Both the position numbers and the translations under genes were made by a program. This document shows, in pieces, positions 42,134 to 59,822 of a stretch of 64,000 nt of DNA (the stretch's first letter is position 1; each line of letters opens with the position of its first letter). Origin of the DNA: Pirellulales bacterium (GTDB lineage: Bacteria; Planctomycetota; Planctomycetia; Pirellulales; PALSA-1355); the NCBI GenBank assembly GCA_963733035.1, contig CAVTBU010000006.1, positions 192,001 through 256,000 of the forward strand. The letters run 5' to 3'. The notes beneath the pieces are model-generated. The model had not been told where the DNA came from, searched no databases, and saw only the letters and a list, made by a program, of their open reading frames with translations.

Positions 42134-42459
42134 CGCAGTCGCGGGTCACGTGAATTCTGTTGGTTTTTGGGGCAGCCTCATTGTCTTATCTTATGCTAAA
42201 CGGGTTGGACTATGAGTAACATTTCAGAGCTCATTTGTGCGACAGATTCCAGAAATCTAGGTAGCGGCGCTCGCGGCTCTGTACCACGTGACCGAATGTC
42301 AACCGAAGCCGCACGTTTGTTTCGATCGGCGAACAAGTGGGATACAATCGGAGGCGCGCGGCTGTGGGTGACGTGCGATTTGGACCCCCGCTTCGTGTCG
42401 TATTATAGCGCGATGAGCCGACAACAATATCCTTGCCGTCGTTTTTGCGGAGCCCGGTC

Positions 42460-43883
42460 GTGGACAATTATTCGGACTATGATGGCCTGGGTTTGGCCGA
42501 ACTTGTCGCAAAAAAGCAAGTGTCGCCGACCGAGCTGGTCGAGGCCGCAATCGCTTGCATCGAACGGCACAACCCGATCTTGAACGCGGTTGTCTACCAG
42601 GGCTTTGATGACGCTCGCGCTCGCGCCAAAAGTGAACTACCGGACGGCCCGTTCAAGGGCGTGCCGTTCTTGATCAAGGACCTGGCCATGCCAGTCGCTG
42701 GCTGGCCGCGCACGTCAGGAAGCCGGTTCGCTGCCAGAATTGTGGACAACGAGGACGGCGGACTCACCGCGCGCTACCGCGCCGCCGGCGTCATCCCGAT
42801 TGGTAAGACCAATACACCGGAATTTGGCATCACGGGCACCACCGAGAGTGCTTATCTTGGACCATGTCGCAACCCCTGGAACTCGCGACATATTGCTGGC
42901 GGCTCGTCTGGCGGATCGGCTGCGGCGGTTGCAGCGGGCATGGTGCCCATGGCGCACGCGTCGGATGGACTGGGCTCAATCCGAATTCCAGCGGCGTGCT
43001 GCGGCCTCGTGGGCCTGAAGGTCACCCGCGACCGCAACCCGAATCTTCCCGATGGCTACGACTATGTGGTCGGGCAGGTGGTCGATCATGTGGTGACCCG
43101 GACCGTACGCGACTCGGCCGCCATGCTGGACGCCACCGGCTATCCCGAACCCGGCTCTCCATACGCGAACCCACCAAAGTCGGGACCGTATCTACGGGAG
43201 GTCGGCCGCAGTCCTGGCCGGTTGCGGATCGCCTGGTCTGCTAAGACTCCCAGCGGCCGCCCGATCAGCGATGAGGTGCAAGCGGCGCTGTGCGCACCGC
43301 TGAGCTCTTGAAACATCTCGGCCACGACGTGATCGAGCGTGGCCTCGGCATCGACTACCGAGCACTCTATGCCGCGCGCGCTCCGGTCGGCGCGGCCAAC
43401 TTTGCCGCCGGCATGGCTCGTCTTATCGAACAGATCGGTCGCGAACCCGAGCCCGACGACCTTGAGCCACTCACCTGGCAGGTACTAGAGGCCGGACGCA
43501 ATGTGACCGGCGTCGAAGCTCTTCGTGCCATGCATGAAATACGAATGCTCAATCGCAAGACGCTGTTGGCGTTCGAGGACATTGACGTTTATTTATCGCC
43601 TGTGATGGGAGAGCCGCCGCCGGAGATCGGCCACATCGATCCGGTTAACTTGGAGCCGCGCGAACTGTACCGTCGCCAGAACCGCGTTTTCCCATTTACC
43701 CCGACGTTCAATTTCTCCGGCCAGCCTTCGCTGTCGTTGCCGCTGCAGATGTCGGCCAGCAATTTGCCCATCGGAATGATGTTTACCGCCAAATATGCCG
43801 ACGAAGCCACCCTATTCCGGCTGGCCAGCCAGTTGGAAAAGGAAGCACCGTGGGCGGCCCGCCGTCCGCCCATTTGGGGCTAG
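42460..43883 (+). CDS. Amidase signature family protein, frameshift near 43290
   Basis: GVPFLIKD, GGSSGGSAAAV, DGLGSIRIP. Confidence 0.9.
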
Positions 43884-49455: not shown

Positions 49456-49527
49456 GGGTCGGTAGCTGAGACGGTTTAGCGGTGGCCTGAAAAGCCGCAG
49501 ACGAGGATTCGAGCGCCTCCCGACCCA
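49456..49527 (+). tRNA. tRNA-Phe(GAA), irregular T-loop
   Basis: Anticodon arm GTGGC-CTGAAAA-GCCGC. Confidence 0.7.
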
Positions 49528-49563
49528 CTGCGCTCTGCGTGCGCGCTGACGGAGAACACTCAC

Positions 49564-49636
49564 GGCTCGTTCGTCTATCGGTTCAGGATACTGCCCTTTC
49601 AAGGCGGAGAGGTGGGTTCGATTCCCACACGAGCTA
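49564..49636 (+). tRNA. tRNA-Glu(TTC)
   Basis: CTGCC-CTTTCAA-GGCGG; GGTTCGATTCC. Confidence 0.9.
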
Positions 49637-49654
49637 CTGAAGCAACAAAATCAT

Positions 49655-49726
49655 CGGGCTGAAGAGGGACGGCGCCTCGCGTGCCTTGGGAGCACGAGAC
49701 AGTCGGTTCGACTCCGACCTGCCCGA
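49655..49726 (+). tRNA. tRNA-Pro(TGG)
   Basis: CGTGC-CTTGGGA-GCACG. Confidence 0.8.
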
Positions 49727-49736
49727 CTTGCGTGAC

Positions 49737-49808
49737 GGTAGTTGAGGGCTGGTTGCCCAAACCCGGCTGATAACCAGGTGGCGCTGAGTTCGATTCTCAG
49801 AACTACCA
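49737..49808 (+). tRNA. tRNA-Ile(GAT)
   Basis: Loop CTGATAA; GGTAGTT/AACTACC acceptor. Confidence 0.75.
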
Positions 49809-49887
49809 CTGAACGAGAGATCACAAGAAGGAGAAACGACGTTGGCAACTCGCATGCGACTCAAACGCATACGCCCACTCCACATTC

Positions 49888-49959
49888 GGGGTCGTGGCGT
49901 AACGGCAGCGCTTCCGCCTTTTAAGCGGGAAGGTAAGGGTTCGACTCCCTTCGGCCCCA
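49888..49959 (+). tRNA. tRNA-Lys(TTT)
   Basis: TCCGC-CTTTTAA-GCGGG. Confidence 0.88.
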
Positions 49960-49987
49960 CTGCGTTGGCTTCGGCCAGCGATCGCGG

Positions 49988-50060
49988 CGGCGCGTAGCTC
50001 AGTGGTGAGAGCAGGTCTCTTATAAGGACCAGGTCGAGGGTTCGATTCCCTCCGCGCCCA
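49988..50060 (+). tRNA. tRNA-Ile(TAT), rare anticodon
   Basis: Canonical TAGCTCAGTGG D-arm; GGTCT-CTTATAA-GGACC. Confidence 0.88.
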
Positions 50061-50092
50061 CTGTGCGCGCAGAAACGAGGAACAACACGAAC

Positions 50093-50165
50093 GGGATCAA
50101 GGTGCTAGCGGCAGCATGCCTGGCTCTTAACCAGGTCGGTGAGGGTTCAAGTCCCTCTGATCCCA
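50093..50165 (+). tRNA. tRNA-Lys(CTT)
   Basis: CCTGG-CTCTTAA-CCAGG. Confidence 0.88.
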
Positions 50166-50168
50166 CTG

Positions 50169-50264
50169 GAAACAGGCGAGAGGCACGAGGCCACAGGCTA
50201 GAGGGCGACCTTGAACCTCTACTGCTGACCTCTGGTCTCTCGCCTCAGGCCTCTGGCCTGTTTC
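50169..50264 (+). repeat. Heptamer-repeat palindromic hairpin (REP-like)
   Basis: GAAACAGGC (nnnAGGC)x3 ... (GCCTnnn)xn GCCTGTTTC. Confidence 0.7.
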
Positions 50265-50294
50265 GATCTTTGACAATTCGACCAGCGATTCGAC

Positions 50295-50361
50295 GCGCCC
50301 ATGATGTAGCGGTAGCCTGCTGCCTTGCCATGGCGTGCGGGTTCAACTCCCGCTGGGCGCT
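50295..50361 (+). tRNA. tRNA-Gly(GCC), shortened (variable region deleted)
   Basis: GCGCCCA/TGGGCGC acceptor, loop TTGCCAT, only ~67 nt. Confidence 0.65.
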
Positions 50362-50368
50362 TCAATTT

Positions 50369-50442
50369 CAGGGTGTGGGATAGCCTGGTAGTCCGCCTGC
50401 GTCGGGAGCAGGAGAGCGTCGGTTCAATTCCGACCACCCTGA
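50369..50442 (+). tRNA. tRNA-Pro(CGG)
   Basis: CCTGC-GTCGGGA-GCAGG. Confidence 0.88.
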
Positions 50443-50480
50443 CTTTTTGAGAACGCTCTGACCGGTACAATGAGCGAATC

Positions 50481-50798
50481 ATGAATTGGCTTACGCCGTG
50501 GACTCCGATTGTCGAAAGCGATCGCGCGGAAATGCTGACTACCGAACTTCGTCGCGAAGTTGGAGTCGGCCACGTGCTGTTCGGCATTCCGGTAAAACCA
50601 ATTGCAATTCGCCAAGATTGCGACGACGTGCTCTTCGAGCTTCTTGATGGCTCGGGCCGATTCGCCGTCACTCACTTGACGTACGCTCAGCATCCCGAGC
50701 CAGATTCGCAATGGCCTGCAACTCGTCTCTGTGACGATTTGACTCAATTCGAGCGGAGCATCATGCACGTCGATCATTCGACCGCGACCGGCTTATAG
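50481..50798 (+). CDS. Small hypothetical protein inserted in the tRNA array
   Basis: 105-aa ORF filling the gap between two tRNA-Pro genes; EL.RE...GH.L...RQDCDDVLF...VTHLTY. Confidence 0.7.
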   Translation: MNWLTPWTPIVESDRAEMLTTELRREVGVGHVLFGIPVKPIAIRQDCDDVLFELLDGSGRFAVTHLTYAQHPEPDSQWPATRLCDDLTQFERSIMHVDHSTATGL

Positions 50799-50815
50799 CG
50801 ATCGACTCCAGCTCG

Positions 50816-50889
50816 GAGGGTGTAGCGAAGCCTGGCATCGCGCAAGCTCGGGGAGCTTGAGATCGCAGGTTCAAATCCTGCCACCCTGA
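50816..50889 (+). tRNA. tRNA-Pro(GGG), C33
   Basis: CAAGC-TCGGGGA-GCTTG. Confidence 0.8.
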
Positions 50890-50908
50890 CTCGAACGTCG
50901 TCGATTGT

Positions 50909-51457
50909 TCAGCGCTTCCAAATCGTTACGTCGCTGCTGATCGCGATCAATAGCGTTCGGCCAGTGTACGAAAAGCCAAACCCGCGAAGCTCACGCTCAA
51001 TGGCTAGTTTCCAGAATCGTGAGGCAGGTGGATAGATGCTCTCGTACTTGCCAAGAAGCAAAAGACTTGTGTCCGGCCAATCGATGGACAAGGCTTCGAC
51101 GCCCCATCCGTCATCGGTCTGAGTCGGGAGGCCACCACCGACAAGTCCACAGACGCGAATCTCCCTTCCATCAAGTGGACCAAATCCGATGGCAGTCATG
51201 GCGTCTTTGCCGAACCACGATTCTTGATCTGATTCGTCACGATCTCGAGCGACTTTTTCGCCGGTGCGGCAATCGATGATTCCACGCCCTTGAGACGACA
51301 GTACCAGTAGCAGTTCAGAGTCGTCCGCAAAACCAATCTCAGTAAGTCCGCCAATTGCGACGGACGCGACGAACGACCATGGCTCTGGCGGAGCGGTGAC
51401 CGCAGCACGGCGAATTTTGTCTCGCACAGGTTCGAGGTGGTCCATAAGGTTTGCCAT
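50909..51457 (-). CDS. Hypothetical protein antisense within the tRNA array
   Basis: 182-aa ORF that fills the inter-tRNA gap exactly. Confidence 0.7.
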   Translation of the reverse strand: MANLMDHLEPVRDKIRRAAVTAPPEPWSFVASVAIGGLTEIGFADDSELLLVLSSQGRGIIDCRTGEKVARDRDESDQESWFGKDAMTAIGFGPLDGREIRVCGLVGGGLPTQTDDGWGVEALSIDWPDTSLLLLGKYESIYPPASRFWKLAIERELRGFGFSYTGRTLLIAISSDVTIWKR

Positions 51458-51500
51458 GGGTTCATAGGATGGCTCGCCAGTATACCGGATTGATCAATAT

Positions 51501-51575
51501 TGCGGTGGGGCCTGTGTTGGTACAGGCAGGCGCCTGTTAAGCGCCCCTTCGCAGGTTCGATTCCTGCCGCCGCAG
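51501..51575 (+). tRNA. tRNA-Asn(GTT)
   Basis: GGCGC-CTGTTAA-GCGCC. Confidence 0.88.
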
Positions 51576-51587
51576 CTTTCTAGGGAC

Positions 51588-51671
51588 GGAAGGGCAAGCC
51601 AATGGGCGATGGCAGCTGTTTCGAAAACAGTCGAGCGATGAGCCTTGAGGGTTCGACTCCCTCTCCTTCCG
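51588..51671 (+). tRNA. tRNA-Ser(CGA)
   Basis: GCTGT-TTCGAAA-ACAGT; long variable arm. Confidence 0.88.
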
Positions 51672-51675
51672 CTTC

Positions 51676-51747
51676 GTGCTCTTGGCCGATCGGCAGAGGC
51701 GTCAGCCTTCCAAGCTGAACAGGCGGGTTCGATTCCCGCAGAGCACT
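51676..51747 (+). tRNA. tRNA-Gly(TCC)
   Basis: TCAGC-CTTCCAA-GCTGA. Confidence 0.88.
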
Positions 51748-51760
51748 TTCGATCAATCAT

Positions 51761-51831
51761 TCGGGGATCGGCTAATGGTCGGCCGCCTGGCTTTGAACCA
51801 GGCTATGGTAGTTCGAATCTACCTCCCCGAG
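51761..51831 (+). tRNA. tRNA-Gln(TTG)
   Basis: CCTGG-CTTTGAA-CCAGG. Confidence 0.88.
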
Positions 51832-51840
51832 CTTGGAAGA

Positions 51841-51887
51841 CTACCGCCCTGCGCTCGATTGCCGCCCGGCAATCGTGCTCGGTTGCT
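51841..51887 (+). repeat. 47-nt hairpin mini-element (copy 1) inside a tRNA remnant
   Basis: CTACCGCCCTGCGCTCG-ATTGCC-GCCC-GGCAAT-CGTGCTCGGTTGCT, followed by a T-arm/acceptor 3' half. Confidence 0.8.
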
Positions 51888-51925
51888 GGTTTGATTCCTT
51901 CTCCCCGAACTCGGTGACAAAACAT

Positions 51926-52000
51926 TCCGGGGTAGCTGCTGCTGGTAGTGGCGCCTGGCTCTGAACCAGGAGGTCGTTGGTTCGATTCCAACTCCCGGAG
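51926..52000 (+). tRNA. tRNA-Gln(CTG)
   Basis: CCTGG-CTCTGAA-CCAGG. Confidence 0.88.
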
Positions 52001-52020
52001 CTGTTTCGAACGACACGATC

Positions 52021-52106
52021 GGAAGTCATCCGGCCGGATGAGGAGCCTGTCTTGAAAACAGGTGGCGGCCTCGCGCCGCTTGTGGGTTCGAGTCCCACGG
52101 CTTCCG
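52021..52106 (+). tRNA. tRNA-Ser(TGA)
   Basis: CCTGT-CTTGAAA-ACAGG; long variable arm. Confidence 0.88.
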
Positions 52107-52134
52107 CTCAACAGGTCGATTCGTTCAGCAACAC

Positions 52135-52205
52135 AGTCCCGTGGTCCAACGGCAAGACTCCTGCGTCACATCCAGGAAACGATGGTTCAACTCCATCCGG
52201 GACTA
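52135..52205 (+). tRNA. tRNA-Val(CAC)
   Basis: Loop GTCACAT; one stem mismatch. Confidence 0.75.
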
Positions 52206-52211
52206 CTCGAT

Positions 52212-52285
52212 GTCCAGGTACGCCAATTGGCAGAGCGGCACGGCTTAAACCCGCGCGGATGCCGGTTCGACTCCGGCCTTGGGCA
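52212..52285 (+). tRNA. tRNA-Leu(TAA), short variable loop
   Basis: CACGG-CTTAAAC-CCGCG. Confidence 0.8.
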
Positions 52286-52295
52286 CTGTCAACGC

Positions 52296-52368
52296 GGCTC
52301 GGTCGGCAACGGCAGACCACCTTGGCTTAGAACCAAGGATGCTGTGGGTTCGAATCCCACCTGAGCTA
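52296..52368 (+). tRNA. tRNA-Leu(TAG), short variable loop
   Basis: CTTGG-CTTAGAA-CCAAG. Confidence 0.85.
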
Positions 52369-52382
52369 TTTAGTAGAGACTC

Positions 52383-52457
52383 GTCCTCGTGGAGTAGTCT
52401 GGAGTGCTCGCCTGCCTGTCACGCAGGAGATCACGGGTTCAAATCCCGTCGGGGACG
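52383..52457 (+). tRNA. tRNA-Asp(GTC)
   Basis: CCTGC-CTGTCAC-GCAGG. Confidence 0.92.
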
Positions 52458-52539
52458 CCTTTTGATTGTTGTACGCGAAATCGTCTGTGGCGCGGAGTGT
52501 TCCGCAACGCCTCGACGAACTGCAACGCAACGTAAATCT

Positions 52540-52613
52540 GGCACGGTACGCCAATCGGCTGAGCGGCGAAGCTCAAACCTTCGTGTCTGCGGGTTCGACT
52601 CCCGCCTGTGCCA
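52540..52613 (+). tRNA. tRNA-Leu(CAA), short variable loop
   Basis: CGAAG-CTCAAAC-CTTCG. Confidence 0.85.
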
Positions 52614-52619
52614 CTGTTC

Positions 52620-52706
52620 GGGTTGTGCTCCTCGTGGCGGCCTGTAAAGCCGTTGTCACAAAAGAAGCGAGGTGGGCGACGAATGGTTCGATTCCTTCAC
52701 AACCCA
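52620..52706 (+). tRNA. tRNA-Tyr(GTA)-like, lacking a D-arm, long variable region
   Basis: GGGTTGT/ACAACCC acceptor; GCGGC-CTGTAAA-GCCGT. Confidence 0.65.
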
Positions 52707-52711
52707 ATTGA

Positions 52712-52784
52712 GGCCCGCTCGTCTATCGGTTGAGGACGCCAGCCTCTCAAGCTGGAAGGACGGGTTCGATTCCCGTGCGGGTCA
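52712..52784 (+). tRNA. tRNA-Glu(CTC)
   Basis: CCAGC-CTCTCAA-GCTGG. Confidence 0.9.
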
Positions 52785-52790
52785 CTGTAT

Positions 52791-52873
52791 GGCCAAGTGG
52801 TGTAACTGGTAAACACGCGACGCTCAGAACGTCGTGCCCTTGCGGCGTGGGAGTTCGAGTCTCCCCTTGGTCA
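52791..52873 (+). tRNA. tRNA-Leu(CAG), long variable arm
   Basis: CGACG-CTCAGAA-CGTCG. Confidence 0.9.
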
Positions 52874-52890
52874 CTGAAATATTGAATTGA

Positions 52891-52959
52891 CGCAGGTGAG
52901 CCAGTGCTCAGCCGAGTTTCATAAGCTCAGCCCGTCGGGTGCGACACCCGAACCTGCAA
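52891..52959 (+). tRNA. tRNA-Met(CAT), initiator-like C1:A72, degenerate
   Basis: Loop TTCATAA, short D-arm, T-loop TGCGACA. Confidence 0.6.
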
Positions 52960-52964
52960 CTTAC

Positions 52965-53040
52965 GGCCGGGTACGCAAACTGGCAAAGCGACGAGGTCGA
53001 GAGCCTCGTGATTTTGTGAGTTCGACTCTCACTCCGGTCA
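52965..53040 (+). tRNA. tRNA-Leu(GAG), C33, short variable loop
   Basis: CGAGG-TCGAGAG-CCTCG. Confidence 0.8.
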
Positions 53041-53069
53041 CTTGAATGAGATTGCGGCCAAAACTGATC

Positions 53070-53507
53070 CTACAGTGCGAGCACGCGGCACACCTCTCGA
53101 ATCCAGATCTCACCGATCCATTCCAGGTCGGCATACGGAGAGATGCGTGAAGCGGTCCAGCCGCTTTCGTCGAGTACTCGCATCATGCCGGGTGCCGCCA
53201 AGGCGTTCGTTGTGTGGATGATCACTGGGCATGTCGGCGGTTTCGTCGCGAGAAAGTCGGCCACATCGCGTCCGGTGCCGGGGTCACGCATGACACCGCC
53301 GATCAATCGGTTGGGTCCGAGATCGTGATCGAGGCAGATGAGAATCGGTTCGCCGCAGTGAACCTTCAGCCAGACGATCATATCTGGTGCATTGTCGAAC
53401 ACAATTGATTCATGGCCTGGGCAGCGACTTGCGAGGCACGGCAACATTGCGGCGATCCGTTCCGGCTCGTCGTCAAGAATTGCGACTACTTTTGATTCGC
53501 TTGCCAT
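53070..53507 (-). CDS. Cyclic-phosphate-processing receiver-like domain protein
   Basis: ILDD...ICLDHDLG...GTGRDVA...VIIHTTN pattern. Confidence 0.75.
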   Translation of the reverse strand: MASESKVVAILDDEPERIAAMLPCLASRCPGHESIVFDNAPDMIVWLKVHCGEPILICLDHDLGPNRLIGGVMRDPGTGRDVADFLATKPPTCPVIIHTTNALAAPGMMRVLDESGWTASRISPYADLEWIGEIWIREVCRVLAL

Positions 53508-53533
53508 GTCAACAAGTCTAACAAATCACATTC

Positions 53534-53606
53534 GATCCCGTGGTCCAACGGCTACGACGCCTGGATGACACCCAGGAGGCAGATGGTTCAACTCCATCCG
53601 GGATCA
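53534..53606 (+). tRNA. tRNA-Val(GAC)
   Basis: CCTGG-ATGACAC-CCAGG. Confidence 0.85.
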
Positions 53607-53616
53607 TTTGCGAATC

Positions 53617-53688
53617 GGTCTGTAGGTGTGTTCGGCGGCACACCTCCTCGGTAAGGAGGAAGGCCGGGTTCGACTCCCGGACGGACCT
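53617..53688 (+). tRNA. tRNA-Thr(GGT), C33
   Basis: CCTCC-TCGGTAA-GGAGG. Confidence 0.82.
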
Positions 53689-53757
53689 TCAACCGAGCAC
53701 GCGACATAGGCGTGCCGCGAGCGCAGGGCGAAAGGAATCGAGATGGATAGAAGTGAG

Positions 53758-53795
53758 GGGCTGCTGGTCCAACGGCAAGACGCTTGGATTGAAGT
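53758..53795 (+). pseudogene. 5' half of a tRNA-Ala-like gene, 3' half replaced by a hairpin
   Basis: GGGCTGCTGGTCCAACGGCAAGACGCTTGG resembles the start of the next tRNA-Ala; no T-arm follows. Confidence 0.6.
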
Positions 53796-53837
53796 CAGCG
53801 TCGATGGCAACGGCGGATCGACGCTCGTCAAATACAT

Positions 53838-53908
53838 GGGCTGCTCGTCCAACGGGAAGACGCCTGGCTTGCAACCAGGAAATCGGGGTTCGACTCCCCG
53901 GCGGTCCA
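53838..53908 (+). tRNA. tRNA-Ala(TGC)
   Basis: G3:U70; CCTGG-CTTGCAA-CCAGG. Confidence 0.9.
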
Positions 53909-53919
53909 CTGAATAAAAC

Positions 53920-53990
53920 GGGCTCATGGTCCAAAGGGAAGACATCAGGCTGGCAGTCTGAAGATCCGGGTTCAATTCCCGGTGAGTCCA
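53920..53990 (+). tRNA. tRNA-Ala(GGC)
   Basis: G3:U70; TCAGG-CTGGCAG-TCTGA. Confidence 0.88.
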
Positions 53991-54008
53991 CTGATACGGG
54001 AAACCTTT

Positions 54009-54311
54009 TTACATCGGAATACCGGCATCAATCGCAGCTTGTCGATTGTGGCCGGGTTCGAGAAGTGTCGTTCCTTGATAGACCTCGACGTTCGCGTCCA
54101 TGAGATCAGAAAGAGGCAGCTCAACATAGACCTGGGTATTACGGTCGGTCTCGACAACGTTGAACCACGGTTGTGCAACGAAACTGCGCACCTGGATTTC
54201 CAGTGACTCGCCGGGCAACAGCGTGAAGTCGTGAGGCCACGGCTCGACCCAAATGACGCGCAATTGCGCTTCGTCGTTGGTCACGCCGATCTTTGCGAAG
54301 AACTCACTCAT
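54009..54311 (-). CDS. Small hypothetical (immunity-like) protein
   Basis: 100-aa ORF in an inter-tRNA gap; VIWVEPW..DFTLLPGE. Confidence 0.6.
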   Translation of the reverse strand: MSEFFAKIGVTNDEAQLRVIWVEPWPHDFTLLPGESLEIQVRSFVAQPWFNVVETDRNTQVYVELPLSDLMDANVEVYQGTTLLEPGHNRQAAIDAGIPM

Positions 54312-54443
54312 TACCCTAGCGTATTGCGGAAGCGTACGACAAACAAGTGATTCGGAAGGTAGATGCTATGGCAGCGGCGAGGGACTGCGTTAGGCTCCGA
54401 GTCACGAGGGATTGTTTTATCCGTTGTTTTGAGGAGCTCAATC

Positions 54444-55622
54444 ATGGCCACTCGACCGCAAGACTGCAGCACAACGAAGCCAGTACTGTTCCTGGGTCTC
54501 GAATTAGGGCAGCGAACCTGGAAGTTGGGGTTCACCGTGGGTTTGGGTCAGAAGCCGCGGCGACGTGAGATCGCTGCCGGTTGCATTCAGGCACTGAAAC
54601 GAGAGATCAATGAGAGTAAGCAACGTTTTGGTCTGCCTGCGGATGTGGAGGTGATTAGCTGTTACGAGGCAGGCCGTGATGGGTTTTGGCTGCATCGTTG
54701 GCTGGTGTCTGAGAACGTCACAAACTTGGTGGTTGACTCGTCTAGCATTCAAGTGCCGCGGCGGCAGCGACGGGCCAAGACCGATCGTCTGGATTTGGAA
54801 CAATTGTTGACCATGTTGGTGCGCTGGCATCAGGGCGAGTCGAAAGTCTGGAGCGTGGTGACGGTGCCGAGTGAAGCGGAAGAGGACGTTCGGCATTTGC
54901 ATCGCGAGTTGGAAACGCTGCGGGCGGAACAGACCAGCCACATCAATCGAATCAAGGGGCTGTTGATCGGTTGCGGCGTGGTGATTGATGTGAACCGCTG
55001 GCTACCGAAACGGCTCAAAGCAATACGGCTTTGGAATGGCTCGCCGTTGACCAGCGATTTGCGGCAACGGGTATTGCGGGAGTTCGAGCGGATGCAGGTG
55101 GTCAATCGACAGGTTCGCGAGCTGGAAAAGGAGCGTGCCGCCCGGATTCGCAGCAACGAAACTGACAAGAGCGTCGCCCAGGTGCGGACGTTGTTGGGCG
55201 TGAAGGGCATCGGCGTCAACAGCGCGTGGATGTACGTGCAGGAGGTGTTTGGCTGGCGAAAGATCAAGAATCGTCGTCAATTGGGTGCGCTCGTGGGGCT
55301 GACCGGCAGTCCGTATAGCAGCGGCAACTTGGAGCGCGATCAGGGAATTACAAAGGCTGGAAACCGCCGGATGCGAACAATGGCTGTCGAAATCGCCTGG
55401 GGATGGTTGGCATTCCAACCCGGCAGCGATCTGAGCCGTTGGTATCACGATCGATTCGCGGCCGGAAACAAGCGTCTTCGTCGCATTGGAATTGTGGCGC
55501 TGGCAAGAAAGCTGTTGGTGGAGTTGTGGAAATACCTGGAGACCGGCGTGCCGCCTTGCAACGCGGAGCTGACCGAGTGGGAGGACAAGATTCACTACAC
55601 CCCTTCCCTTACGCCGGCGTAG
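54444..55622 (+). CDS. IS110 family transposase/recombinase
   Basis: LGLELG, CYEAG, KTDRLD, GIG, SSG and ITKAGN motifs; GAGGAG SD. Confidence 0.92.
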   Translation: MATRPQDCSTTKPVLFLGLELGQRTWKLGFTVGLGQKPRRREIAAGCIQALKREINESKQRFGLPADVEVISCYEAGRDGFWLHRWLVSENVTNLVVDSSSIQVPRRQRRAKTDRLDLEQLLTMLVRWHQGESKVWSVVTVPSEAEEDVRHLHRELETLRAEQTSHINRIKGLLIGCGVVIDVNRWLPKRLKAIRLWNGSPLTSDLRQRVLREFERMQVVNRQVRELEKERAARIRSNETDKSVAQVRTLLGVKGIGVNSAWMYVQEVFGWRKIKNRRQLGALVGLTGSPYSSGNLERDQGITKAGNRRMRTMAVEIAWGWLAFQPGSDLSRWYHDRFAAGNKRLRRIGIVALARKLLVELWKYLETGVPPCNAELTEWEDKIHYTPSLTPA

Positions 55623-55629
55623 CGATTGG

Positions 55630-55860
55630 ATCGGTGCGAGTATGGAGCGTCTGAACGACTGACGTCGAGACTGGAAAGCGACCGAGTATCCGGCGGGTAC
55701 GAGTTAGGCTCACCGAAAGGTAGATGGGATCGCTTTCATTATGGCTTCCCGAGAGCGTCCAGGACGCATAGGGCATAGGGTGATCGGCGATGATGCCGGC
55801 ACGGATAGAAGCTAGTCGTTGGCCTCGGCCACAACGATCAGCGGAAGCCGCCAGTCATGA
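55630..55860 (+). ncRNA. Candidate bridge/seek RNA of the IS110 element
   Basis: Contains AAGGTAG (target left flank + core) and ATAGAAG (element right end + core); boundaries approximate. Confidence 0.6.
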
Positions 55861-56218
55861 CGTTGAACCGACAGAAGAAGTGTTTTGAGGAATGGCAGGA
55901 CAAATGAATGTGCATCCCAGCACGGCTCCAGCCGCGGCGTGCGGCCAGAGCCGTCACGGAATCATTCACCCGCCCTGACCTGGCTATCCCTTGTTGGGTT
56001 GCTCTTCAGCAGAGCTCAACTCCGTTTCACCAGGCAGGCGAAAGTATATCACGACTCAACGTTGGATGAGGAGCTTGACAGGTGCGCATCCATAGAAGCC
56101 GGATACGGTTGGCCGGGCCGCTCTGCTAAGGCGGTTCCCGCTCGTCGGGATGAGGGTTCGAATCGGGCACCGCGGCAAAGCCGTGGTCTACCTTCCGCTG
56201 GTGAAAAGGCTCCTCCAA

Positions 56219-56581
56219 TCACTTCGCCTGTTCCACGTCGATCGCGGCCCGCAGCTCCTCAACATTCGCGAATTGTTGAAGTGGAAGATCGAACGAGTAG
56301 TCGAGATCAATGATTCGAAGGGGGATGCCGAGATGCCTTTGAACGATCAGCGCGGCACTTAGGGCGGCGTCTGTCATCCCCGATATCGAGATCGCGTCGC
56401 GTTTCCGGCTGAGGTCGACCATCGTGAAGTCGTCGCCCTCAGAATAGTCCGCTTCAATTGGGATTCCGATGGACGTATTATATCGAATCTCACCGAATCC
56501 CCTGACCGACTTGAAAATGTCTTGCAACGCCTCGACGGTAAATAGCCGTTTGTCGTCGCTGAACAGCAGAAGACTTTGCAT
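56219..56581 (-). CDS. Putative cognate immunity protein
   Basis: 120-aa acidic ORF starting 16 nt after the toxin stop. Confidence 0.65.
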   Translation of the reverse strand: MQSLLLFSDDKRLFTVEALQDIFKSVRGFGEIRYNTSIGIPIEADYSEGDDFTMVDLSRKRDAISISGMTDAALSAALIVQRHLGIPLRIIDLDYSFDLPLQQFANVEELRAAIDVEQAK

Positions 56582-56596
56582 AGCAATTACGTACTC

Positions 56597-57867
56597 CTAG
56601 GGCTCGAGTCGCACCTTGCCGGGCACGGATAGTTCCTTGAGCAGGGCTTCAAAAGCTGACTTCGCCTCGGGCGAGTTGGTGATGATTTCGATTGATTTAA
56701 AAGGCGTTTCGCCACTCTTGATAATTGTGCGAACTCTCGTCAAATCGTCACGCACTTTGTCCAGAATCACGGCCCGGATGTCCTCTCGGATAGATGAGCC
56801 GGGCACATAAGGACTCTTGCCGGCCTTCGCTACGTGCTTCGCTTCAAGAATTATCGTATCCCGGTATCCATCGATTGCAAAAGACTGGCCGCCGCCTGAT
56901 ATCGTGTAGTTGTAGGGGCCGGTCTGCTTGATTTCATATTGACTCGCTGCCGATTTCGTGGGTGTAGGCTTGCGAGGAAGCTTCGCGACGAAGTCATCAA
57001 GAGTGCCTCCCACTTTTCCAGGAACTTTGCGAAGCGCCCTGCCGAGCACAGCCTTCCCGAGTCGCAGGATTGCCGGTGCGGCCACGACGGCGGATGCAAT
57101 TTCAAACTCAATGCCGGTTGACTGCAAACCACTCGGTGTGCCGCCCCTGGCTACGGCATGCCCGACTTCCTCGATACCCTTGCCACCGACGATCGTCTCT
57201 GCCGGGGTGAACGCCGAATGCTGTTTCGCTGGGCGTGATAGCTCTTAATGCGTTTCGGCAATTCCTTGATTTGGCGACGGGTGTGATCCAATGCATTCTT
57301 TGTCTGCCACCAAGCGTGTGCCAGGTCCAGCATGTGTGAGTCGGAACCGTCGGACTCGTCGCTTCCGCCGCTACCGGGCCCCTTGCTGCGGGGTGAGCGA
57401 CTCTTGCCGGTGTTGATTCCGCCCCCACCGCCCCCCTTATTGATCCACTGCCCGCCGATCGGCGTTCCCTTGGGCGCCCGGGGATGATCGGCCTCGTTCC
57501 ATTCGACAACAAGTGAGTCTGATTCAGTGAATCGCTCGATCGCATGCCACGTCCTGCTGTCCCGTGCCTCGATCTGTTGAATCGCACGCAGTTTGTCTTC
57601 CGCCTCGGCCGAGATCTGAGCTGCCCATTCCAGAAGCTCACGATCGCGACGAGCGTTGGCTTCGGCGGATTGCAGCTCGCGCAGCTCCTTTGCCTGTCGA
57701 TACGAGAATCGTGCTAGCCGCCCCAACTCCTCGCGTTGAGCTTTCGCCTGTGCCTCGGGAGGCATCATTCGTGGAATCGGCCTACCGAGAATCGCTTGTG
57801 CAAATAGCCAACCTTCGCTGGGCTGCGAAACTCCGGCGACATCCCGTGTCTTTTTGTAACGGTCCAT
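56597..57867 (-). CDS. Polymorphic toxin with restriction-endonuclease-fold (Tox-REase-2-like) C-terminus, frameshift near 57240
   Basis: N-terminus LFAQAILG / RDRELLEW / EWNEADHPR; C-terminus YE...IDG...LEAK...SPY...EIITN (PD-D/ExK); GAGGAG SD. Confidence 0.75.
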
Positions 57868-57891
57868 GACGCTCCTCTTCATGGGTGCGAG

Positions 57892-58088
57892 AAAAAGAGC
57901 CCGCACCCGGTGCGCGCTTCGCAAGCGCGCACCGATTACGGGCTCTTTGGATACTCGTTGTCAGGGGCCTACTGGCACGAGGACGTGCAGTCGAGCTCTT
58001 CGGATACCCCGGTCACTCATGGTGACCTTGCCCAGCGATCAGCTCGCCGATTGATTCGGAACCTAGCACAAAGGGCGGCCTAGTTTCT
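57892..58088 (-). promoter_or_regulatory. Conserved leader: putative promoter, structured RNA and intrinsic terminator (copy 2)
   Basis: TAGAAA-18-TAGGTT with extended TG; shares TGAGTGACCGGGGTATCCGAAGAGCTCGAC...CCTGACAACGAGTATCC...GAGCCCGTAATCGG with copy 1. Confidence 0.75.
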
Positions 58089-58179
58089 AGTCGAAGATTT
58101 AATGGAGTGATTGGTCTGAGCAAATACGTCGCGCGAACCGTGCGGCGTGGATCTGTTTCCTTTTCTAATGTCTCAGCTC

Positions 58180-58269
58180 GCCTCGATGGTGAAACGGACG
58201 ATCACTCCTTGCTTCTAACAAGGCCCGGTATTTCTGGGAGACGCGGGGGTTCGAATCCTGGTCGGGGCA
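58180..58269 (+). tRNA. tRNA-Arg(TCT), degenerate (insertion in variable region, weak T-stem)
   Basis: GCCTCGA/TCGGGGC acceptor; CCTTG-CTTCTAA-CAAGG. Confidence 0.6.
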
Positions 58270-58279
58270 TTTTGAAGAA

Positions 58280-58312
58280 GAGTGGTTGGTGGTCAGTGGC
58301 TAGTGGTCAGTG
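58280..58312 (+). repeat. Short heptamer tandem repeat (AGTGGTY)n
   Basis: AGTGGTT GGTGGTC AGTGGCT AGTGGTC AGTG. Confidence 0.65.
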
Positions 58313-58368
58313 AAGCAAGGGGCGGCGAACACAAAGCGTGCTCGTCTGTCCTACCTGTGGCCTGTGGT

Positions 58369-58415
58369 CTACCGCCCTGCGCTCGGCAGATGCCCATCTG
58401 CCGTGCTCGGTTGCT
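58369..58415 (+). repeat. 47-nt hairpin mini-element (copy 2) inside a tRNA remnant
   Basis: CTACCGCCCTGCGCTCG-GCAGAT-GCCC-ATCTGC-CGTGCTCGGTTGCT followed by GGTTCAATTCCT. Confidence 0.8.
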
Positions 58416-58616
58416 GGTTCAATTCCTCGGCGAGGCACTGAGAAGGCGGCGAGTTGAATGATCATGTTGCGAGCGATCCTAACAGCGTTGAGACGATTCC
58501 TGTTTGGCCAGCCTGTGGCCAGCAGGGTGACCGCGAAGAAACCGTCGGCAGAAGCCGTCGCGTGTGCGGTCGTTCATTCGACGACGTCGGCGGATCGCAA
58601 CGAAGGGAGGCCTACC

Positions 58617-59108
58617 ATGAACGCAGCCTATGACAAACTATGCGAACACCTGACCAACCAGAACGTCGGCTTTTGGTCGCGCAGCGAGGACTTGTCGATC
58701 TGCACCGACTTTCGGGGCGAGGTCGGTACGTACCGGATCTTCGCTCGGATTGATGCTGATGACAGCTTGTTCCAGGTCTTCGGTCATTCGCCGGTTCGCG
58801 TTCCGCCAGGCTCGCGGCCGGCGATCGCCGAGGCCGTGGCGCGGATCAACTGCGGTCTGAAGGTCGGCAAGTTCGAGATGGATTGTGACGAGGGCGAGCT
58901 GCGGTTCCAGGCGGCCCAGATCCTGCCCGACGACGATCTCGACGAGCAGACGATTCGGCGACTGATTGGTACGACCATGTCGATGTTGAACATTTACCTT
59001 CCGGCCATCTTGTCGGTCATCTACGGCAACGAACTGCCGAAGGATGCCGTCAGACACGCAGAGCCCGGGCGGTATGTGTCCGACGAAAACGAGCGCGGTG
59101 AGGCCTGA
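58617..59108 (+). CDS. YbjN-like (CesT-fold) protein
   Basis: GGGAGG SD; AEAVARIN.GLKVGKFEMD..EGELRF. Confidence 0.75.
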   Translation: MNAAYDKLCEHLTNQNVGFWSRSEDLSICTDFRGEVGTYRIFARIDADDSLFQVFGHSPVRVPPGSRPAIAEAVARINCGLKVGKFEMDCDEGELRFQAAQILPDDDLDEQTIRRLIGTTMSMLNIYLPAILSVIYGNELPKDAVRHAEPGRYVSDENERGEA

Positions 59109-59121
59109 TCACCGCGCATTT

Positions 59122-59194
59122 GTCCTCGGAGTGTGCCGGATTCGCACGCGACCCTGCGAAGGTCGAGGACCAGGTTCAACTCCTGGCGAGGACA
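59122..59194 (+). tRNA. tRNA-Arg(GCG), rare anticodon
   Basis: CGACC-CTGCGAA-GGTCG; GTCCTCG/CGAGGAC acceptor. Confidence 0.85.
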
Positions 59195-59241
59195 TTTTGG
59201 AATGTCGCGGGATTGTGTACCGTAGTAGCGGGAGACACTCA

Positions 59242-59706
59242 ATGAACTTGCAGCATGAAAATCACGGTCCCTTGCCGACGCGCGAGGACATTAATGTCTT
59301 CGACTCGCTTGACGAACGTTGCGCTTGCGATCACTTTTTGGGCAAGAACATGGACGAGGCTCAGGCACTGTTCAGTGATAATTTCTTGCGTTACCAGGAG
59401 GATTTGGTGTTTATGGGGCCTCGTGCCTTCCGCTTCTACGTTCATGCTGCCATGCAATACCTCATGAGCCCCGATGCCTCAGGTGACGGCGATGCCGCCA
59501 ACAGTTTCGCAGGGCTACTTGAATTCAGACTTGAACATGAGAGGAACGAAGTGCAGCCAGTGGCAGGTGAGCTAGCGCGGATATGCAATTACCTCTTCGA
59601 AAATATTAGTCGATTCGAATGTGAGCCATCCATCTATGGCGATGTTGGCGCTCGTTATGCAGCTCTGAATAGCGCGCTCGAACAACTCGCCACGACACAG
59701 CCCTAA
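59242..59706 (+). CDS. Hypothetical (immunity-like) protein
   Basis: GGAGA SD; SLDE..A..HF.GK...EDL.FMGPRAF.FY. Confidence 0.65.
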   Translation: MNLQHENHGPLPTREDINVFDSLDERCACDHFLGKNMDEAQALFSDNFLRYQEDLVFMGPRAFRFYVHAAMQYLMSPDASGDGDAANSFAGLLEFRLEHERNEVQPVAGELARICNYLFENISRFECEPSIYGDVGARYAALNSALEQLATTQP

Positions 59707-59750
59707 CCCAACATGGTCCGGCTCGTGCAGCAGCATCAATTCTCAAATCT

Positions 59751-59822
59751 GACGCTGAAGCCAGACGGCGTGGCAACTGCCTGCAAAGCAGTTCACAGCG
59801 GGTTCGACTCCCGCCGGCGTCT
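59751..59822 (+). tRNA. tRNA-Cys(GCA)
   Basis: ACTGC-CTGCAAA-GCAGT; U73. Confidence 0.88.

Follow-up and report, generated by a model that had tools for sequence, protein, structure and literature searches.

The 64,000-nt window analysed here comprises positions 192001-256000 of contig C6 of a Pirellulales bacterium (CAVTBU010000006.1), whose genome of 6.6 Mb has a G+C content of 60%. At 54363-56098 the window carries a 1,736-bp element (right-hand AG included) that splits a tRNA-Ser(GCT) gene of a tRNA array. This element is very probably an intact insertion sequence (IS) of the IS110 family, with the layout of the IS1111 type, which encodes a predicted bridge (seek) RNA with two internal loops. 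The boundaries of the element, the family and predicted fold of its protein, the structure of the RNA and the covariation of the RNA guides with the flanks and ends were established by the comparisons described below.

Boundaries, copies and empty sites of the element

The element is inserted in the order GGAAGGT-AG, element, AG-CCGGATAC. At the left junction GGAAGGTAG ends at 54362 and ATGCTATGG begins at 54363; at the right junction CCATAGAAG ends at 56098 and CCGGATACGG begins at 56099. The target written out is GGAAGGTAGCCGGATAC. The features that delimit the element are the following.

54354-54360, plus strand: left target (LT) GGAAGGT, positions 1-7 of tRNA-Ser(GCT); in metagenome contigs GGAAGGT is followed directly by AG-CCGGATACGG
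54361-54362, plus strand: core dinucleotide AG, left copy; a single AG in the uninterrupted site
54363-56098, plus strand: insertion sequence; two copies differing at 1 of 1,736 nt, ends conserved family-wide
54363-54443, plus strand: left end (LE), 81 nt, beginning ATGCTATGG; family motif LT-AG-AT(N)(C/A)TATG in 149 of 157 non-self loci
56090-56098, plus strand: right terminus CCATAGA plus core AG, the end of the right end (RE); family motif CATAGA-AG, subterminal repeat CCATAG at 56090-56095
56099-56190, plus strand: right target (RT) CCGGATAC… and the rest of the tRNA-Ser(GCT) remnant, aberrant from 56165 on

The subterminal repeat of the left end, CTATGG, lies at 54366-54371, and a Shine-Dalgarno-like GAGGAGC precedes the ATG of the transposase gene.

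A second copy was found at C6:263616-265426, with identical junctions, at the same site of a paralogous tRNA gene and in non-collinear flanks. The only difference between the copies is at window position 54957, which is G in the window and A in copy 2 (C6:264210), and it changes Gly172 to Arg (G172R) in copy 2. The window copy keeps the consensus residue, found in at least 90% of 34 homologues. Next to the element, the two copies have in common only 9 nt of tRNA at the left side and 66 nt at the right. The left flanks show no match in the last ~370 nt beside the element, and the similarity farther out is patchy and at shifted positions, mostly 78-98% over 53-163 nt; the right side also has a stretch of 684 nt at 93%.

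Short contigs from all four metagenome runs examined contain uninterrupted sites with one AG only, in which GGAAGGT stands directly before the sequence beginning at window position 56097 (AG-CCGGATACGG). In one metagenome run, a 1,812-nt contig ~92% identical to the window covers exactly 54354-56164 and represents a diverged copy in the same site. As these contigs come from mixed communities, they show that such sites exist and do not identify the host organism; the same contigs gave no circle junctions. The two tRNA paralogues and the single-AG empty sites indicate a site-specific insertion with a common core dinucleotide and no terminal inverted repeats.

The initial annotation had proposed that removing the element restores the 5' end of tRNA-Ser(GCT). 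At copy 2, removal of the element yields an 88-nt tRNA-Ser(gct) recognised by ARAGORN. At the window copy the 5' end of the tRNA is restored as claimed, but the 3' end of the gene is damaged too, with 26 nt (56165-56190) in place of the CCTTG found in the T arm of the paralogue, and ARAGORN recognised no tRNA there, relaxed settings included. This 26-nt stretch is small, hairpin-forming and unique in the genome.

An integrase-type island using the tRNA gene as its attachment site was considered and rejected. The ends are of the IS110 type, and no further open reading frame (ORF) with a protein-family match was found, overlapping frames not having been scanned.

Homologues number in the thousands, in a search limited to 8,000 matches; among those listed, identity reaches 88% for the top match and 60-72% for many others. 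For the family-wide comparison, 80 genome and 80 metagenome loci at 44-61% identity were sampled together with three loci from the same order. The right end reads TTGACA-N16-…CATAGA-AG-RT in 115 of the 157 non-self loci; in 96 of these 115, TTGACA begins 24 nt from the end. The patterns used to find the ends had AG built in and allowed one mismatch, and under these patterns AG was present at both junctions in nearly all relatives. Right ends were additionally required to have TTGACA at the correct distance, a looser pattern having sometimes caught the internal ACGGATAGAAG guide motif. The family ends imply that the donor junction is nearly constant, while the flanks vary from element to element.

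Structure of the bridge RNA

The non-coding region downstream of the transposase gene contains a structured RNA of ~190 nt, whose parts are listed here.

~55669-55856, plus strand: bridge (seek) RNA gene, ~190 nt, with outer stem GACUGG / CCAGUC; identified by its fold, by covariation and by a hidden Markov model (HMM)
55686-55694, plus strand: right-target guide GUAUCCGG followed by C, on the 5' side of the target loop; complementary to CCGGATAC and the core G
55695-55714, plus strand: capping hairpin of the target-binding loop (helix 4), with 86% of cells paired and four of six pairs compensatory
55717-55725, plus strand: left-target guide AAGGU, core AG, then AU, which equals the first 2 nt of the left end (handshake-like)
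55743-55749, plus strand: 5' strand GGCUUCC of the basal stem of the donor loop, pairing with GGAAGCC at 55843-55849; helix 5, all five pairs changed on both sides, 87.7% paired
55772-55776, plus strand: right-donor guide GGCAU, complementary to left-end positions 1-5 (ATGCT, one G-T wobble)
55805-55812, plus strand: left-donor guide AUAGA, core AG, then C, which equals the first base of the right target (handshake-like)

The sequence 55669-55856 folds better than 200 shuffled versions of itself (z = -3.42). A structure of seven helices with 36 pairs was written on an alignment of 44 sequences and evaluated by explicit pair counting and with an HMM. Its helices are paired in 91.4% of the alignment cells, compared with 33-46% when the partners are slid by 1-3 columns. 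Compensatory changes, on both sides of the pair, were seen at 27 of the 36 pairs, and 202 cells carry double changes versus 44-62 after sliding. None of 500 shuffles reached the observed pairing values. The HMM found the RNA in 143 of the 152 related loci that have at least 100 nt downstream; in the genome studied here, it matched only within the two copies of the element.

The architecture consists of the outer stem and two stem-closed multi-loops, each with two single-stranded segments that flank a hairpin. One loop is complementary to the target and the other to the donor ends, as seen from the structure and from the covariation of the guides with flanks and with ends.

Guides covary with the flanks and ends of the element

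The comparison of many copies' flanks with their guide loops, which the initial annotation had proposed together with folding the 3' region, revealed the same two ends and the same RNA in more than 100 relatives, and all four guides covary with flanks or ends across these relatives.

The right-target guide corresponds to the complement of the right flank that the initial annotation had pointed out; the match is a real guide, although it lies at 55686-55694 and not at 55685-55693. The sequence GTATCCGGC at these positions and its complement at 56098-56106 are the only two matches in the 64-kb window, compared with 0.31 expected by chance. The 7 nt before the capping hairpin had a mean complementarity of 5.68/7 to the right flank of their own locus and of 3.10/7 to those of other loci (n = 99 non-redundant loci), and at least six of seven positions were complementary for 59% of own RT1-7 sequences versus 1.6% for those of other loci. 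The best of four registers was taken for own and other flanks alike.

The left-target guide, AAGGTAG at 55717-55723 in the DNA, had been read as left target plus core and is indeed in place. The 5 nt ahead of the conserved AGAUGG match positions -5 to -1 of their own left target with an identity of.67-.93 per position, compared with.24-.39 for other loci (n = 118). The core is followed by two bases that match LE1-2, with AT facing AT in 102 of 121 loci and AA facing AA in nine of nine.

The right-donor guide, the 5 nt ending 3 nt ahead of the GUG of the next stem, was missed by the initial annotation, whose set of guide matches was thus incomplete. It tracks LE3 (G-C in 33 of 38 loci, A-U in 46 of 71, C-G in 15 of 18 and T-A in 5 of 6) as well as LE4 (C-G in 106 of 117 and A-U in 10 of 16). 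Meanwhile, GGCT at 55743-55746, which had been proposed as a guide, is present at this position as part of the covarying donor-loop stem, helix 5. The caution that the short matches might be partly due to chance was therefore justified for GGCT and not for the other three, which covary across relatives.

The left-donor guide, the ATAGAAG at 55805-55811 previously read as donor end plus core, follows the variants of the right end. A right end ATAGAAG was accompanied by the guide ATAGAAG in 96 of 98 loci, ATAGGAG by ATAGGAG in nine of nine, and ATGGAAG by CTGGAAG in two of two, both of them in one genome. The base that follows the core is the same as RT1 in 89% of the 84 deduplicated rows versus 51% for other loci. 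The extensions of the two core-containing guides read across the recombinant junctions and covary with the non-cognate partner; judging from these sequences, they resemble the handshake guides described for IS621 in PMC11208158. The initial proposal of a complete programmable recombinase unit is supported by these results, since copies and relatives have the same ends and their target flanks covary with the guide segments.

The transposase resembles bridge recombinases

The gene that precedes the RNA encodes the putative recombinase.

54444-55622, plus strand: transposase/recombinase gene, 392 aa, identified by NF033542, PF02371 and Foldseek; key residues E20, E75, D114, D117 and S293-G294

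The protein scored 171.1 bits against the NCBIfam model NF033542, "IS110 family RNA-guided transposase" (cut-off 140), with residues 17-369 aligned to profile positions 2-342, and 45.9 against PF02371 (Transposase_20; cut-off 21.3, E = 7.6e-12). With a profile built from 34 homologues, the C-terminal domain aligned to IS621 and ISCro4, Ser-Gly loop included. A search of PDB sequences with an N-terminal profile gave only noise and no match to IS621. The AlphaFold2 model of the protein had a pLDDT of 73.9, and its top ten Foldseek matches in the PDB were all chains of IS621 or ISCro4 synaptic complexes (~370 columns, E from 2.6e-9 to 5e-8, TM 0.44-0.56). According to this model, the transposase folds like the IS621 and ISCro4 bridge recombinases.

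The residues E75, D114, D117 and S293-G294 are conserved in 153-155 of 155 relatives. The N-terminus reads LFLGLELG, and the first acidic residue is E20; the initial annotation had correctly noted E instead of D at the first catalytic position (LGLELG). E20 falls on position 5 of the NF033542 profile, at which three other IS110 transposases of this genome have D. The register was taken from the coordinates of the NCBIfam HMM; a four-sequence MAFFT alignment misaligned the N-termini and was set aside. Among the 155 relatives, 150 have E and four have D in this column, so that E at the first acidic position is the rule in this subfamily. This E is compatible with mobility, as two elements of one contig (loci L010 and L011), whose flanks are unrelated but whose 1,632 nt show 100% identity, both read IELS at this position. 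Apart from this E-for-D variant, each sequence-level feature tested points to membership of the IS110 family in the broad sense.

The four loci L098, L101, L149 and L083 read LAFDLG, a natural interchange of E and D at the presumed catalytic site. Three other IS110-family transposase genes of the genome (C5:32606-33592, C5:53843-54805 and C7:394417-395406) score above the NF033542 cut-off and read D as first catalytic residue. Their sequences are not related to the subfamily of the element, with 24-26% identity for the two found by tblastn.

Proposed mechanism of mobility

By analogy with characterised systems, we infer that the element is transcribed, forms a circle, catalyses its own recombination and is currently active. 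Two further features of the right end matter here.

55866-56074, plus strand: spacer between bridge RNA and right end, of variable length across the family
56075-56080, plus strand: -35 hexamer TTGACA of a promoter that would be completed on circularisation; in 78 of 104 distinct junctions the hexamer is exact and stands at 24 nt from the right end

As for IS621 and ISEc11, the element would leave as a circle joining RE-AG-LE. Joining the ends reproduced the arrangement already proposed for the circle, TTGACA, a 17-nt spacer and GATGCT (6/6 and 3/6 matches to the consensus), in which the position of the -35 hexamer is fixed across the family. The -10 hexamer consists of G and the first five bases of the left end, and among the 104 family junctions it was GATACT in 36, GATGCT in 25, GATCCT in 15 and GATAAT in 11. 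The completed promoter would read into the recombinase gene and then into the bridge RNA. In published systems, the junction promoter is likewise presumed, according to PMC11187229, to transcribe both the transposase gene (tnp) and the non-coding region. A scan of the linear element found no sigma-70-like promoter.

In the target loop, GUAUCCGG-C would pair with the sense strand of the right flank, and AAGGU-AG-AU with the opposite strand of the left flank and the core. In the donor loop, GGCAU would pair with the left end and AUAGA-AG-C with the right end and the core. A recombinase tetramer loaded with this RNA could then align the circle junction with GGAAGGT-AG-CCGGATAC, and the conserved Ser293 would serve to exchange strands at the AG core, which reads CT on the other strand.

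In the spacer, ~85 nt at 55964-56050 are conserved with three relatives only (L119, L101 and L091).

Points against the proposed mechanism and alternative explanations

Several results weigh against an intact, RNA-guided element of this kind. The Pfam model PF01548 (DEDD_Tnp_IS110) gave 22.9 bits, under its 29-bit cut-off, and aligned only to residues 71-174. The -10 hexamer of this copy is weak (GATGCT, 3/6), and for this reason its junction promoter fails the sigma-70 criteria of the scan, which were passed by only 42 of the 104 family junctions. Rfam 15, searched up to E = 1, had no match within the element and matched only a neighbouring tRNA. The matches between guides and targets in the relatives are imperfect, as the mean of 5.68/7 for the right target and the 67-93% identity at positions -5 to -1 of the left target indicate. 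The right-target guide covers one core base and the right-donor guide none, unlike the guides of IS621. Finally, the assembly contains no empty target and no circle junction, so that gene conversion instead of recent transposition could account for two copies that are nearly identical.

An unlikely but conceivable explanation is that the element serves as a reversible RNA-guided on/off switch of a spare tRNA-Ser(GCT) gene, with read-through from array promoters supplying recombinase and bridge RNA without any circle, an E-E-D-D active site and an order of strand exchange mirrored relative to IS621. Both copies are co-oriented with the tRNA genes of a dense array, so that array read-through may be a second source of transcript, and a precise excision would, for copy 2 at least, give back an intact tRNA-Ser(GCT). 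In the subfamily, the location of the handshake bases on the antisense-binding guides would imply the mirrored order.

It is very unlikely that the element is a dead or domesticated relic, copied by duplication or gene conversion within a duplicated tRNA array and with nothing currently mobile. The partial duplication of the array would fit this, as would the lack of an empty target and a circle junction in the assembly, the G172R substitution of copy 2 at a position at least 90% conserved and the degenerate host tRNA of the window copy. In spite of this, the flanks of the two copies are mostly unlike or patchy, whereas the element itself differs at a single position. In addition, the window copy retains its ORF, all catalytic residues, all four guides and both ends, and an unrelated metagenome run contains a copy ~8% diverged in the same site.

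That a real IS110-family element matches its flanks and ends merely by chance, its target being chosen by the protein alone, is hardly credible in spite of the shortness of each match (5-9 nt), the failure of GGCT as one of the four matches first proposed and the missing Rfam model, because the matching segments lie in unpaired loops of a structure backed by covariation, change with the flanks in 99-118 non-redundant relatives while permuted pairings give background values, and mirror the rare right ends ATAGGAG and ATGGAAG; judged from these alignments, guide covariation has already largely refuted it.

The tRNA array and other sites

The window contains 30 tRNA genes at 49456-59822, which are part of an array of ~44 genes in ~27 kb reaching C6:268483. 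The array is partly duplicated and forms a second set alongside dispersed housekeeping tRNA genes. Long tRNA arrays are reportedly the subject of PMC4758250 and PMC8421152. The housekeeping tRNA-Ser(gct) gene at C5:700967-701054 is intact and begins GGAGAGGTGGCTGAGTGG, a sequence different from the target; its different 5' sequence shows that it is not a target of the element. For genome annotation, the element explains why two tRNA-Ser(GCT) genes of the array go uncalled.

A tRNA target is unusual in this sample, as none of 94 reconstituted sites (93 of relatives and the window's own degenerate site) gave a tRNA in ARAGORN. Our searches of the literature on IS110 and bridge RNA targets and on tRNA arrays brought up no IS110 element reported to target a tRNA-Ser gene.

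A relic was noticed in locus L003 (~1350-1575; C5:2680581-2680657, minus strand). It consists of GGAAGGTAG and the first 17 nt of the element's left end (2 mismatches), which run straight into the anticodon arm of a gene resembling tRNA-Ser(GCT). The T arm of this tRNA-like gene is interrupted in turn by the remains of a different IS110-type element, namely its right end (…TTGACA…) and the last ~40 codons of its transposase.

Small ORFs are interspersed among the tRNA genes of the array, at 53070-53504 (minus strand; cREC_REC domain), 56597-57124 (minus strand; Tox-REase-2 domain) and 58458-59105 (YbjN). Outside the array, an amidase gene at 42433-43883 appears to be split into two overlapping ORFs that match positions 1-257 and 261-444 of the Pfam Amidase profile, which suggests a frameshift or an assembly error.

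Comparison with known systems

IS621 and ISCro4 (PDB 8wt6, 8wt9 and 9t56) share with the element the same fold order of RuvC-like domain, coiled coil and Tnp domain, and the Ser-Gly loop is conserved in both. Their bridge RNA likewise has a target loop and a donor loop, with one guide per DNA strand and short non-cognate extensions, according to PMC11208160 and PMC11208158. A promoter completed at the circle junction is known for them and predicted for the element. The differences are that the RNA is encoded upstream of the gene in IS621 and ISCro4 and downstream in the element, that the transposase has 392 aa instead of ~326 aa with E instead of D as the first acidic residue, and that identity in the structural alignments is only 16-18%.

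A further difference concerns the order of the guides. According to PMC11208160 and PMC11208158, each loop of IS621 begins with a guide for the bottom strand, followed by one for the top strand; the CT core is contained in every guide, and the handshake bases come after the second. In the orientation of its gene, the element, unlike IS621, has the core AG and places the sense-complementary guide first in each loop; the second guide of each loop carries the core and the extra bases, and the sense-strand guides cover 0-1 core bases. When the element is read on the other strand, the core becomes CT, and the guide order, the core coverage and the placement of the handshake bases become IS621-like. 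The difference that remains is that the first guides of the element cover one core base in the target loop and none in the donor loop. According to PMC11187229, elements of the IS1111 and IS110 types have their top- and bottom-strand matches in opposite orders, and the reversed guide order of the element agrees with this.

The seekRNA elements of the IS1111 group described in PMC11187229 (ISEc11, ISKpn4 and ISPa11) have, like the element, a long non-coding region downstream of tnp, subterminal inverted repeats and a junction promoter (predicted in the element), and their top-strand match, again as in the element, is located on the 5' side of the bottom-strand one. In the element, the sense-complementary GUAUCCGGC at 55686-55694 precedes the sense-identical AAGGUAG at 55717-55723, and the same holds for its relatives; 81 nt lie upstream and 476 nt downstream of tnp, with the RNA in the right end. 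The motif GLTGSPYSSG of the element differs from the GL-P----S(t)G of the IS1111 group. The transposase of 392 aa (relatives ~375-400 aa) is longer than the 330-350 aa stated for IS1111 transposases in PMC11187229, and the subterminal repeat of 6 bp (CTATGG/CCATAG), of which only 4-5 bp are conserved across the family, is shorter than the 7-17 bp stated in PMC11208160. As the layout is IS1111-like while protein length and repeat fall outside the published ranges, a placement in the IS1111 subgroup would be tentative.

A named relative is ISRel9 of the Rhizobium plasmid pRspN113b ("IS110-like element ISRel9 family transposase"), 36% identical over 91% of the protein; of the 70 plasmid records listed, no other with an identity above 30% has an IS-specific annotation. 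Its left end is of the same type (AG-ATCCCATG), its right end is TTGACG-N16-AG, and the sequence GCTTTAGAT in its 3' region matches the left flank of ISRel9 itself in the manner of a left-target guide. Only the target-loop half of its RNA matches the HMM (E = 3.6e-4); the donor half and the target differ from those of the element.

Bridge- and seek-RNA-guided recombinases are under development as genome-editing tools, and most of the mechanistic work rests on IS621 and a few enterobacterial elements. The locus described here and its ~140 aligned relatives provide a fully readable guide code for a large environmental subfamily, with four guides, a fixed AG core and two handshake-like extensions in a 3'-encoded RNA, and with E in place of the first catalytic D. 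Systems of this kind are already known, their mechanism having been described in 2024, and the element is an ordinary, though well-preserved, further example of them.

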